A stretch of DNA of 64,000 nt from Escherichia coli (GTDB lineage: Bacteria > Pseudomonadota > Gammaproteobacteria > Enterobacterales > Enterobacteriaceae): NCBI RefSeq assembly GCF_044647545.1, contig NZ_CP172818.1. The stretch is one strand, 5' to 3'. A program made the position numbers and the translations under genes. Each line of letters begins with the position of its first letter. Within the stretch, counting starts at the first letter, position 1. Below, in pieces: positions 20,690-44,197 of this stretch. The notes under the pieces were generated by a model, which made no database searches, was not told the DNA's origin, and worked only from the letters and a program-made list of their open reading frames with translations.

Positions 20690-20800
20690 TGTTCATGCCG
20701 GATACGGCATGAACGCTTTATTCGGTCTACAAAAGCAGGCAAATTCAATATATTGCAGAGATGATGTAGACACTGGCAAGCGTAGCGCATCAGGTAATTT
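20690..20800. repeat. Degenerate REP-like palindromic units downstream of mngB
   Basis: GCCGGATACGGCATGAACGCTTTATTCGGTCTAC and AAGCGTAGCGCATCAGG resemble REP consensus with several mismatches. Confidence 0.4.
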
Positions 20801-40591: not shown

Positions 40592-41608
40592 TTAATCGGG
40601 ATATCCCTGTGGATGGCGTGACTGCCAGTGCCAGGTGTCCTGCGCCATTTCATCGAGTGTGCGCGTTACGCGCCAGTTCAGTTCACGGTCGGCTTTGCTG
40701 GCGTCCGCCCAGTAGGCCGGAAGGTCGCCCTCGCGACGCGGTGCAAAATGATAATTAACCGGTTTGCCGCAGGCTTTGCTGAAGGCATTAACCACGTCCA
40801 GCACGCTGCTGCCTACGCCAGCGCCGAGGTTGTAGATGTGTACGCCTGGCTTGTTCGCCAGTTTCTCCATCGCCACGACGTGACCGTCCGCCAGATCCAT
40901 TACGTGGATGTAATCGCGCACGCCAGTACCGTCTTCGGTCGGATAATCGTTACCAAAAATCGCCAGCGAGTCGCGACGGCCTACAGCAACCTGGGCGATG
41001 TATGGCATCAGGTTATTTGGAATGCCTTGCGGATCTTCGCCCATATCGCCCGACGGATGTGCGCCAACCGGGTTGAAGTAGCGCAGCAGGGCAATGCTCC
41101 AGTCCGGCTGGGCTTTTTGCAGATCGGTGAGGATCTGTTCCACCATCAGCTTGCTTTTGCCGTAAGGGCTTTGCGGTGTGCCGGTCGGGAAGCTTTCAAC
41201 ATATGGAATTTTGGGCTGATCGCCATAAACGGTGGCGGAGGAGCTAAAGATAAAGTTTTTGACGTTAGCGGCGCGCATGGCGCTAATCAGGCGCAGAGTA
41301 CCGTTGACATTGTTGTCGTAATATTCAAGCGGTTTTTGTACCGATTCGCCAACGGCTTTCAGCCCGGCGAAGTGGATCACGGTGTCGATAGCGTGATCGT
41401 GCAGGATCTCGGTCATCAACGCTTCGTTACGGATATCGCCTTCAACAAACGTTGGATGTTTGCCGCCTAAACGCTCGATAACAGGCAGTACGCTGCGCTT
41501 ACTGTTACAGAGGTTATCAAGAATGATGACATCATGACCGTTTTGCAGTAATTGCACACAGGTATGACTTCCAATGTAACCGCTACCACCGGTAACCAGA
41601 ACTCTCAT
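40592..41608 (-). CDS. galE: UDP-glucose 4-epimerase
   Basis: ORF track 40592..41650; canonical start MRVLVTGGSGYIGSH; 338 aa. Confidence 0.96.
   Translation of the reverse strand: MRVLVTGGSGYIGSHTCVQLLQNGHDVIILDNLCNSKRSVLPVIERLGGKHPTFVEGDIRNEALMTEILHDHAIDTVIHFAGLKAVGESVQKPLEYYDNNVNGTLRLISAMRAANVKNFIFSSSATVYGDQPKIPYVESFPTGTPQSPYGKSKLMVEQILTDLQKAQPDWSIALLRYFNPVGAHPSGDMGEDPQGIPNNLMPYIAQVAVGRRDSLAIFGNDYPTEDGTGVRDYIHVMDLADGHVVAMEKLANKPGVHIYNLGAGVGSSVLDVVNAFSKACGKPVNYHFAPRREGDLPAYWADASKADRELNWRVTRTLDEMAQDTWHWQSRHPQGYPD
41574..41589. promoter_or_regulatory. gal internal operator OI (GalR/GalS site) within galE
   Basis: Minus-strand GTGGTAGCGGTTACAT within galE codons 7-12; 113 bp centre-to-centre from OE. 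Confidence 0.75.
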
Positions 41609-41626: not shown

Positions 41627-41686
41627 TATGGTATGAAATAACCATAGCATAACAAAGATGCGAAAAGTGTGACATGGAATAAATTA
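41627..41686 (-). promoter_or_regulatory. gal P1/P2 overlapping promoters with CRP site
   Basis: Minus-strand -10 elements TATGGTTAT and TATGCTA; CRP-like TGTGACATGGAATAAATT at about 41664-41685. Confidence 0.75.
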
Positions 41687-41702
41687 GTGGAATCGTTTAC
41701 AC
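41687..41702. promoter_or_regulatory. gal external operator OE
   Basis: GTGGAATCGTTTACAC read directly; known GalR operator palindrome. Confidence 0.8.
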
Positions 41703-41868
41703 AAGAATTTAGCCGTTTTTTATGTGCGATTAAGTGATTATAAAACAGAGGGTTTATGAATGATTGCGCTTTTTATCTGAAAAAAGTCTCGGTTTTATGC
41801 CTGGATGCGTCTAACTGTAGGCCGGAGAGGGCGCTTAGGCCGCCTCCGGTACAGTCAGCATTACCGAC

Positions 41869-43341
41869 TCAGTTTATTTTTGTCAGCGCATAGCGATAAA
41901 AGTCACCGTCCGGCACGAACTCCAGACGATGGGTAATACAGGCAGGCGCATCTTCAGCGTGGTGCGAAACAAACAACAATTGCGTTTCACCTTCGCTAAT
42001 CAGCACATCAACAAAACGGCGGATAAGCTGGCGATTGAGCGGGTCCAGCCCCTGTAGTGGTTCATCGAGAATAAGCAACGTCGGATGTTTCACCAGTGCG
42101 CGGACGATCAGCGCCAGACGCTGCTGTCCCCAGGAAAGACTATGGAACGGAGCGTCAGCCGTGCGTTTATCAATACCGAGAATATCCAGCCACTGCTGCA
42201 CCAGTTTTTGCTGGCGATCCGAAACGGCCTGATAAATGCCAATCGAATCAAAATAGCCAGAAAGAATCACATTACGCACGGTAGTGCTGACCCGGTAATC
42301 CAGATGCAAACTACTGCTGACGTAACCGATATGCTTTTTGATATCCCAGATGGTTTCGCCGCTGCCGCGACGTCGTCCGAAAAGCGTCAAATCGTTGCTG
42401 TAACCTTGCGGATGATCGCCAGTAATCAGGCTTAATAACGTCGATTTTCCCGCGCCATTTGGCCCGACAATTTGCCAGTGTTCGCCTGGATTCACCTGCC
42501 AGCTAAGGTTATTAAGAATGGGGCGATCGTTATAAGAAACCACGCCGTTGTTCAGCACAATGCGCGGTTCGTTGGCGGGTAAGGCGTGACGTGCTGAAGG
42601 TTCATCCGGCTCCGGCAGTTGCACACCTTCAAGCTGTTCGCTATGTGCCAGTTGCGCGACGAGTGCTTGTTGGAGCAGTTCTTCTTTAGCGCCAGTTTCC
42701 GCTAACGTGCAATCCGCCAGCACGCCAGCAAACTGGACAAATTCTGGGATCTCATCGAAGCGATTGAGCACCAGTACCAGAGTAATACCGGACTGATGTA
42801 ACGAGGCGAGTAGCTCAGCCAGCTGCTGACGTGAGGCAACATCCAGGCCATCGAACGGCTCATCAAGAATCAACAAGTCAGGCTCCGACATCAGCGCCTG
42901 ACACAGCAGGGTTTTTCGCGTCTCGCCAGTGGAAAGGTATTTAAAGCGTCGGTCGAGGAGGGCGGTAATACCGAACTGCTGCGCCAGTTGCATGCAACGC
43001 GGAGTATCCTTTACTTCATCCTGAATGATCTCAGCCGTGGTACGCCCGGTGTCATCTTCGCCAGGACTAAGCATATCGGTGTTATTCCGCTGCCATTCGT
43101 CGCTGACGAGCTTTTGCAATTGCTCGAAGGAGAGACGAGTGATGTGGGAAAACTGGCTTTGCCGTTCACCTTTCAAAAGCGGAAGTTCCCCCGACAGCGC
43201 GCGGGCCAGCGCCGATTTCCCGCTTCCATTCGAACCGACAAACGCCCAACTATCACCCGCGTTTAACGTTAGCCGAGGCAATTGCAGCGTTTTTGTGTCG
43301 CCAAGACGAAACGTGCCTTGCAAAATTTGCAACGATGACAT
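41869..43341 (-). CDS. modF: Tandem ABC ATPase of the mod regulon (two ATP-binding domains)
   Basis: ORF track 41869..43353; canonical start MSSLQILQGTF; 490 aa; two Walker A motifs. Confidence 0.92.
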   Translation of the reverse strand: MSSLQILQGTFRLGDTKTLQLPRLTLNAGDSWAFVGSNGSGKSALARALSGELPLLKGERQSQFSHITRLSFEQLQKLVSDEWQRNNTDMLSPGEDDTGRTTAEIIQDEVKDTPRCMQLAQQFGITALLDRRFKYLSTGETRKTLLCQALMSEPDLLILDEPFDGLDVASRQQLAELLASLHQSGITLVLVLNRFDEIPEFVQFAGVLADCTLAETGAKEELLQQALVAQLAHSEQLEGVQLPEPDEPSARHALPANEPRIVLNNGVVSYNDRPILNNLSWQVNPGEHWQIVGPNGAGKSTLLSLITGDHPQGYSNDLTLFGRRRGSGETIWDIKKHIGYVSSSLHLDYRVSTTVRNVILSGYFDSIGIYQAVSDRQQKLVQQWLDILGIDKRTADAPFHSLSWGQQRLALIVRALVKHPTLLILDEPLQGLDPLNRQLIRRFVDVLISEGETQLLFVSHHAEDAPACITHRLEFVPDGDFYRYALTKIN

Positions 43342-43408
43342 TTTATATCCCATTTTGTGCAGCGATTACTGACAGGGATACGTGTTTCATAACAAATTGT
43401 CAACACGC

Positions 43409-44197
43409 TTAGCACAGCGTGGCGATAATCACGCTGTCGGCATTAAAGTAGGCCGTGACATTCTGTCCTTGCTGAAGAGAAGTCGCTTCATTTACCGGCA
43501 CTGTGGCGCACAGTGTTTGCCCGTCGGGTAGCGCCATTAATACTTCGCACTGCTCTGCGCCGCGCTCAATATGACTAATAATACCCGGTAATTGGTTGTC
43601 AGCGTTTTGCGCGACCGCCTCGTCCTGAGTAATGCCTACCCACGGCGCTTTTAGCAATATCAACACTTCTTTGCCTTCATCCAGCCCCAGACGTGCGCCG
43701 CTTTGTGCGGTAATTGCGACTTTCAGGCGTGTTTTTCCATCAGCCAGTAAGACATCAACATGCTGTTGAACGTCATCATGATCGCGGGCGGTGATGGTAC
43801 CGAACCACTGGTTACGGGCGCTGGTTTGCAGTGAAAAACGTGAGATCGCGGCCAGCAGGCTGTTCAGCGGCAGGGCGTCATCGTCACTTAACACATCAAA
43901 GGCTTTTTGCTGGATTTGCGCCAGTAAGTCATAGAGCTGAATCAGTCGCTGACCATAGCGGGTCAGTACTGCGCCGCCGCCACCTTTACCGCCTGTTGCG
44001 CGCTCAACCAGAATATGCTCACTTAACTGATTCATCTCGTTAATGGCATCCCAGGCGCTTTTATAGCTGATACCGGCATCTTTCGCTCCCTGGCTAATGG
44101 AACCGGAAAGCGCAATGTGTTTTAGTAGCGAAATGCGGCGCGGGTCGGCGAATAATTTTTGTTGGAGCTTAAGGGTGAGAAGGATTTCGGCCTGCAT
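43409..44197 (-). CDS. modE: Molybdate-responsive transcriptional regulator ModE
   Basis: ORF track; 262 aa. Confidence 0.95.
   Translation of the reverse strand: MQAEILLTLKLQQKLFADPRRISLLKHIALSGSISQGAKDAGISYKSAWDAINEMNQLSEHILVERATGGKGGGGAVLTRYGQRLIQLYDLLAQIQQKAFDVLSDDDALPLNSLLAAISRFSLQTSARNQWFGTITARDHDDVQQHVDVLLADGKTRLKVAITAQSGARLGLDEGKEVLILLKAPWVGITQDEAVAQNADNQLPGIISHIERGAEQCEVLMALPDGQTLCATVPVNEATSLQQGQNVTAYFNADSVIIATLC

Follow-up and report, generated by a model that had tools for sequence, protein, structure and literature searches.

The imperfect palindrome that follows modF in the 64,000-nucleotide stretch of Escherichia coli DNA analyzed here (the window) is a genuine, diverged Y-type REP and the ortholog of K-12 REP71, an identification of which we are nearly certain. 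The element is an ordinary repeat that is already annotated in K-12, and we do not present it as a discovery. As for function, the most likely one that we infer, with the chances about evenly balanced, is that Rho stops modEF read-through downstream of the REP while the REP caps the 3′ end of the message. The complete account, in which a decayed, single Y-type REP, the counterpart of REP71, works together with a downstream Rho stop in this manner, is the one we favor with fair confidence.

Position and identity of the REP

The genes around the element all lie on the minus strand, in the order modE (43409–44197), modF (41869–43353), galE, galT and galK, with the galE ATG at 41608 and the gal OE operator at 41687–41702. 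A preliminary description had placed a palindrome at 41800–41860, between modF and the galE promoter region, and this holds: the 38-mer TGTAGGCCGGAGAGGGCGCTTAGGCCGCCTCCGGTACA, within that interval, matches the window exactly at 41816–41853 on the plus strand. The element thus sits in the modF 3′ UTR, with the gal OE operator about 115 nt further downstream and the gal promoters also downstream. Counted from the modF stop codon, the distance is 17 nt to the equivalent of REP71, 15 nt to the 38-mer, and 11 nt to the base of the extended stem described below (8 nt in a 91-nt fold of the region). At least 15 complete E. coli genomes, FDAARGOS_497, ST648 and ECONIH1 among them, are 100% identical to the window over the 261 bases that surround the element. 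The features to which we refer are the following:

41869–41871, minus strand: modF stop codon (UGA)
41817–41851, plus strand (GTAG-first): Y-type REP (palindromic unit) GTAGGCCGGAGAGGGCGCTTAGGCCGCCTCCGGTA, with 6/35 mismatches to the Y consensus
41817–41820, plus strand: GTAG tetranucleotide, the REP 5′ foot, intact in the window allele
41828–41843, plus strand: inner stem, with a two-base mismatch, three inner pairs and a 6-nt loop
41812–41857, minus strand: extended RNA hairpin of the modF 3′ UTR, from the fold of the 47-mer
41797–41811, plus strand: ATGCCTGGATGCGTC, resembling the head of a Z-type REP (GCCTGATGCG) by sequence comparison only
41780–41785, minus strand (modF-sense): U6 run, 26 nt from the REP stem, with no good hairpin before it in the window allele
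41662–41765, minus strand: C-rich, G-poor stretch (24 C and 8 G; C/G = 3.0), orthologous to a Rho-binding (rut) peak in K-12

For the identification we used a Y-type consensus, GTAGGCCGGATAAGGCGTTTACGCCGCATCCGGCA, built from real REP copies in 150 kb of K-12 DNA, where 16 Y-type copies were found. Positions 41817–41851 are identical to this consensus at 29 of 35 positions in an ungapped alignment, whereas the best matches in 20 shuffles of the 64-kb window had 13–15 differences (20–22 of 35 identical), and the REP consensus alignment that the preliminary description had suggested as a check is therefore significant. Its characterization of the palindrome as having REP-like ends and a diverged core was also borne out, with the six differences located in the mid-stem and the far stem foot, and with TGTAGGCCGGA canonical. 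A search of both strands of the window returned one other equally close site, a REP at 20730; the next best site in the rest of the window had 15 differences, and the complementary strand of the 20730 REP had 13. This second site (GTAGACCGAATAAAGCGTTCATGCCGTATCCGGCA, 20696–20730, minus strand, 6/35 mismatches) is another decayed Y-type REP, located in the mngB-cydA intergenic region and identical in K-12; it and the modF REP are the sole Y-type REPs within the 64-kb window.

E. coli carries roughly 600–700 REP units. Ton-Hoang et al. (PMC3333891) define them as extragenic, imperfect palindromes of 30–40 nt whose 5′ foot carries GTAG and whose stem is interrupted by a two-base mismatch, and the 35-nt unit at 41817–41851 has every one of these characters. 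GTAG is the tetranucleotide required by TnpA_REP (PMC3333891, PMC8266576). The spacer that holds the unit separates a tandem pair of minus-strand genes, modF and galE, and REP71 is correspondingly classed as ‘Tandem’, modF to galE (Harris et al. 2026 bioRxiv). The modF mRNA carries the REP complement (iREP orientation). Membership in a high-copy family is seen in the 16 Y copies per 150 kb of K-12 and in the second Y copy of the window, while the diverged modF REP sequence itself is single-copy, with a median of 1 place per genome. In Rfam the element gave a sub-threshold match (41820–41856; 22.7 bits vs a gathering score of 59.5) to naRNA4, a REP325-derived family that is the only REP-derived one in that database, which holds none for single REPs.

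The K-12 counterpart can be assigned base by base. In K-12, modF is listed as bearing ‘REP71’ (PMC10100675), which spans 792265–792298 (supplementary data, Harris et al. 2026 bioRxiv), and these coordinates convert to window positions 41818–41851 with an offset of 750447 and no indels. A further line of evidence comes from strain Z1323HEC0355 (NZ_CP148363.1), where an IS1397-family IS3 element has inserted into the modF REP loop and now stands between modF and galE. Its junctions read ...ACAC(GTTT) joined to TGAACTG... and ...CAGTTCA joined to (GTTT)ACGCC, with a 4-bp GTTT target duplication. Because IS1397 is experimentally REP-specific (PMC1525189), this insertion is independent evidence that the modF locus behaves as a REP, drawn from one strain whose modF REP allele differs from that of the window.

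The modF REP is a single unit. No second inverted REP was found within 6 mismatches of the Y consensus at the locus, which is accordingly not a REP pair or array (BIME); REP71 is likewise annotated with 1 REP (PMC10100675), and no REP was found in the modE-modF spacer. We considered ATGCCTGGATGCGTC as a second REP, which would turn the locus into a BIME, and rejected it because the fragment is too short and the evidence too thin. The same fragment also resembles the terminator hairpin GGGCGCCTGATGCGCCC of C. amalonaticus, and, judging from these likenesses, it may be a remnant either of a second REP or of an ancestral terminator.

Hairpin structure and variation among alleles

As modF-sense RNA, the 47-nt hairpin of the window allele folds with a predicted energy of −25.4 kcal/mol (z −4.3), and 0 of 200 shuffles folded as well; the 91-nt fold around the element reaches −33.5 kcal/mol (z −3.5). 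The corresponding values for the 47-nt hairpin of three other alleles are:

K-12 allele: −20.4 kcal/mol, z −2.5
O157 allele: −28.5 kcal/mol, z −6.2
E. albertii allele: −24.9 kcal/mol, z −4.2

In the window allele, a C-to-T change at 41850 allows ACTGTA (41814–41819) to pair with TACAGT (41850–41855), lengthening the stem through GTAG. The two-base mismatch is retained as A41828/C41843 and G41829/G41842, where the stem of canonical Y copies has its AA/GC mismatch. Two of the six substitutions are compensatory: stem position 7 has gone from T to G and its partner from A to C, so that a T-A pair has become G-C. Loss of the innermost G-C pair leaves the 6-nt loop. Across 14 distinct alleles, 87.0% of core-stem cells were paired on the plus (GTAG) strand and 89.6% on the minus (mRNA) strand, compared with 27–50% in slid controls, and there was one covarying pair (T-A in 6 alleles, G-C in 6, and intermediates in 2). 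The stem of the mRNA strand was not better conserved than that of the GTAG strand. Taken together, the alleles provide modest evidence that the stem is maintained, with pairing data that do not separate RNA-level from DNA-level selection.

In a DNA-level role, the palindrome would bind gyrase, IHF or HU, or would form a cruciform and thereby shield modEF and gal from each other's supercoiling. There are reports of gyrase, IHF and Pol I binding to REP clusters (BIMEs; PMC1525189), but such activities were described for REP pairs or arrays with specific linkers whereas the modF REP is single, and even REP325, with its 12 units, was found to play no part in organizing the chromosome (Harris et al. 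2026 bioRxiv). We regard this reading as barely credible.

The locus is present in 5387 of 5426 complete E. coli genomes, in one copy each. Over 101 nt, identity to the window ranges from 100% down to 83% across these 5387 genomes, with no change in length, and the window allele is rare, as 77 of them are at least 99% identical over that span. Eleven other E. coli alleles, from ten fetched genomes and K-12, were compared with it. The O157 allele has a near-canonical core with GTGT replacing GTAG; the K-12 allele has the GGAG...CTCC core of the window, GTTG replacing GTAG, and two more changes; and the EC8 allele has ATTG replacing GTAG and, together with the H14/MB53 allele, is an intermediate. 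GTAG is lost in most of the E. coli alleles compared, K-12, O157 and EC8 included. In E. coli H14 (NZ_CP010177.1), modF is annotated as a pseudogene with an internal stop. Among the 12 E. coli alleles, 17 of 38 REP positions vary vs 0 of 97 in the gal promoter/OE segment, a contrast that is inflated by the alleles having been picked to span identity bands. Some of the changes lengthen the stem, as GTAG-to-GTGT does in O157 and E. whittamii, and the sequences suggest that these arose by quasi-palindrome (template-switch) mutation or were favored by selection on the hairpin.

This variability is one ground for the main rival to our account, a neutral relic, that is, a dead selfish or domesticated repeat decaying in place with no measurable effect on modEF or gal. 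The 17 segregating sites set beside none in the gal promoter region speak for it, as do the loss of GTAG in the K-12, O157 and EC8 alleles, which fits relaxed constraint, the loss of the innermost stem pair in 6 of the 14 alleles, and the tolerance of a REP-splitting IS1397 insertion in a natural isolate. However, the diversity figure owes part of its size to the choice of alleles across identity bands, the hairpin is kept in 14 of 14 distinct alleles and in six Escherichia species, one stem pair covaries, and the changes at 41850 and from GTAG to GTGT (in O157 and E. whittamii) make the stem longer. On balance we consider a neutral relic unlikely, though it deserves to be taken seriously.

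Transcript ends and a probable role for Rho

The preliminary description had proposed that the palindrome probably acts as the modF transcript terminator, and here the evidence ran against it. An intrinsic terminator has its U-rich tract within 0–2 nt of the 3′ side of the stem, but no U tract adjoins the REP stem: in the modF-sense direction it is followed by AGUUAGACGCAUCC, and one has to go 26 nt to reach a U6 run. A terminator scan made no call at the element in either the window or K-12. The 3′-end mapping of modEF that had been offered as a check is available from K-12 Term-seq (Adams et al. 2021; LB OD 0.4, LB OD 2.0 and M63), in which there is no 3′ end within 792006–794827 and hence none near REP71 in the three conditions, a null result of limited weight given that modEF is weakly expressed. 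A literature search found no relevant data on a modEF terminator. A Rho-independent terminator would be in keeping with the stable GC-rich hairpin directly after modF, with the intrinsic terminator that Salmonella and Citrobacter have at the same position, and with the few REPs with adjoining U tracts that are annotated in this way (REPt42 and others). Yet besides the U-tract-less flank and the missing Term-seq end, the scan that stays blank at the REP in the window and K-12 does detect the terminator of C. braakii, and the K-12 element is named REP71 rather than REPt71; we therefore judge intrinsic termination at the REP to be highly improbable. We also considered, as a weak intrinsic terminator, a small hairpin that precedes the U-run in K-12, MB53 and E1V33; we left it out of the element because the window allele has it broken (GTCTC vs GACGC in K-12) and the scan did not call it.

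Indirect evidence from K-12 points to Rho instead. An in vitro Rho-binding (rut) peak was mapped at 792109–792212 on the minus strand, with and without NusG (Harris et al. 2026 bioRxiv); it lies 53 nt downstream of REP71, is modF-sense, and ends just before the gal promoters. The orthologous window stretch, 41662–41765, is likely a Rho loading site on modEF read-through transcripts. The peak is known in vitro only, and the table of Harris et al. 2026 records no BCM-sensitive transcript for it. The only Rho termination region reported nearby is at K-12 792926, inside modF (Adams et al. 2021), which corresponds to about 42479 on the minus strand of the window, and part of modEF transcription may end before the REP. 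It has also been found that Rho-terminated E. coli mRNAs end, after trimming by PNPase and RNase II, at stem-loops that have no U tract, including REPs (Dar and Sorek, PMC6061677), and that REP325 is both a stabilizer and a partial Rho-dependent terminator (Harris et al. 2026 bioRxiv).

In the mechanism that we propose, RNA polymerase leaving modEF would transcribe through the REP, and Rho would load on the C-rich, G-poor RNA 50–150 nt further on (41765–41662) and stop transcription before the gal promoters. The 3′-to-5′ exonucleases would then trim the transcript back as far as the REP hairpin, leaving that hairpin to protect the modEF message at its 3′ end. On its own, the REP would aid pausing or attenuation at most and would not be the terminator. 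Under such a mechanism Rho is the insulator and the REP supplies a stable 3′ end, so that the suggestion in the preliminary description of a stabilizer that also insulates modEF from the gal control region survives in part: stabilization is plausible, with the REP hairpin as an exonuclease barrier, while insulation is assigned to downstream Rho rather than to the REP.

Some observations from K-12 sit more comfortably with a neutral relic, namely the lack of a mapped Term-seq 3′ end at REP71 and the finding that gene-end REPs have no genome-wide association with longer mRNA half-lives, and so no general half-life effect (Harris et al. 2026 bioRxiv). In favor of the proposed mechanism, the modF/REP71 transcript figures among those REP-bearing transcripts whose levels go up when ATP is depleted, albeit with a P value of 0.18 (PMC10100675). 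All of these functional data were obtained in K-12, whose allele differs from that of the window at 5 of 35 REP positions.

The closeness of the element to the stop codon raises one more possibility, in which a structure near the stop codon would obstruct ribosomes as they terminate, so that stalling and tmRNA rescue reduce the output of ModF. A translation-level effect has reportedly been described for REPs within about 15 nt of the stop codon, in work attributed to Liang, Rudd and Deutscher (2015, Mol Cell). With the 38-mer at 15 nt and the extended stem at 11 nt (8 nt in the 91-nt fold), the window allele could fall in this range. Nevertheless, the 17 nt between the stop codon and the REP proper reach or exceed the limit reported, the outer stem, being rich in AU pairs, melts easily, and the spacing is constant in all E. 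coli alleles despite their differing outer stems. Regulation of this kind is, in our estimation, quite improbable.

Origin of the REP and comparison with known systems

With a 22-mer from the gal promoter as query, we retrieved 16 species-representative loci. A Y REP with 2–5 consensus mismatches occupies the same place in E. albertii, E. whittamii, Escherichia sp. E1V33, MOD1-EC7003 and ‘E. coli E69’, and the modF-galE spot holds a REP in all six Escherichia species sampled. This distribution dates the presence of the REP in the modF 3′ UTR to the common ancestor of the sampled Escherichia species or earlier. Some of the records retrieved have peculiarities of their own. In MOD1-EC7003, likeness to modF stops at the position of the stop codon (…CCGACTTAG before and CAAATGCCCCGTAAACCC… after) and the contig ends about 55 nt later, so the modF 3′ end may have undergone an insertion or rearrangement. 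A 435-bp ‘Pantoea stewartii’ contig is identical to Salmonella arizonae over the 316 extracted bases, and a ‘Raoultella’ MAG contig differs from Citrobacter braakii at 1 of 420 bases; the two probably represent contamination and misbinning in public assemblies.

No REP was found at the modF 3′ end in 2 Salmonella and 8 Citrobacter genomes (18 or more mismatches out of 35). These genomes have a GC hairpin of 6–7 bp with a directly attached T-run, such as AGGGCGTTTATCACGCCCT TTTTTTCTGC in C. braakii, which the scan called as a terminator. Compared with Salmonella and Citrobacter, Escherichia has about 44 nt more between modF and galE, roughly the length of one REP. The CTGAAAAAA motif, a U-run on the modF strand, is kept in all species compared; it lies about 26 nt from the REP stem in Escherichia, and in Salmonella and Citrobacter the counterpart of the U6 run is part of the T-run of the intrinsic terminator. 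Because this motif is common to all genera compared, we suggest that an older terminator was pushed aside or broken apart by the REP. A fuller scenario, which we offer as tentative, is that, in the Escherichia ancestor, a REP inserted within or beside the modF intrinsic terminator, parted its hairpin from the U tract and made modEF termination Rho-dependent instead of intrinsic, with unusually fast quasi-palindrome evolution since. As part of that same tentative scenario, lineages would have re-perfected the stem differently, by C-to-T at 41850 in the window and by GTAG-to-GTGT in O157. Such rapid change may be due to template-switch mutagenesis, to selection in favor of a stable 3′ hairpin, or to the two together.

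Overall, the importance of the element is small, as it is one of many REPs, its K-12 counterpart has already been named and mapped, and it introduces no new principle. It does provide a natural example of a REP occupying the spot where sister genera hold an intrinsic terminator, and of a single REP locus that is a hot spot of polymorphism within the species as well as a target of IS1397. It could serve as a small case study of how REPs reshape 3′ UTRs.

Compared with the intrinsic terminator of Salmonella and Citrobacter, the REP occupies a matching position with respect to the modF stop codon and the CTGAAAAAA motif and is likewise a GC-rich hairpin, but the terminator has its T-run attached to the hairpin and no similarity to REPs, whereas the Escherichia REP is without an adjoining T-run. 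Compared with canonical Y REPs, such as the Y units of REP325 in yjdM-yjdN, it shares GTAG, the 13-position stem, the two-base mismatch, the small loop and the extragenic position in a 3′ UTR, with 29/35 identity; it differs in its six substitutions, including the compensatory change of T-A to G-C, in its 6-nt loop, and in being a single unit outside any REP pair or array. The closest known system is K-12 REP71 itself, which agrees with the window element in locus, length, orientation and register; the 276 compared bases that span the modF-galE spacer align free of indels. The two alleles share the GCCGGAGAGGG...GGCCGCCTCCGG core. The 5 of 35 REP positions at which the two alleles differ comprise GTAG in the window vs GTTG in K-12, GGCG/TTAG vs GGTG/TAAG, and GGTA vs GGCA, and as a result of these differences the predicted stem of the window allele is longer and more stable than that of REP71 (−25.4 vs −20.4 kcal/mol).
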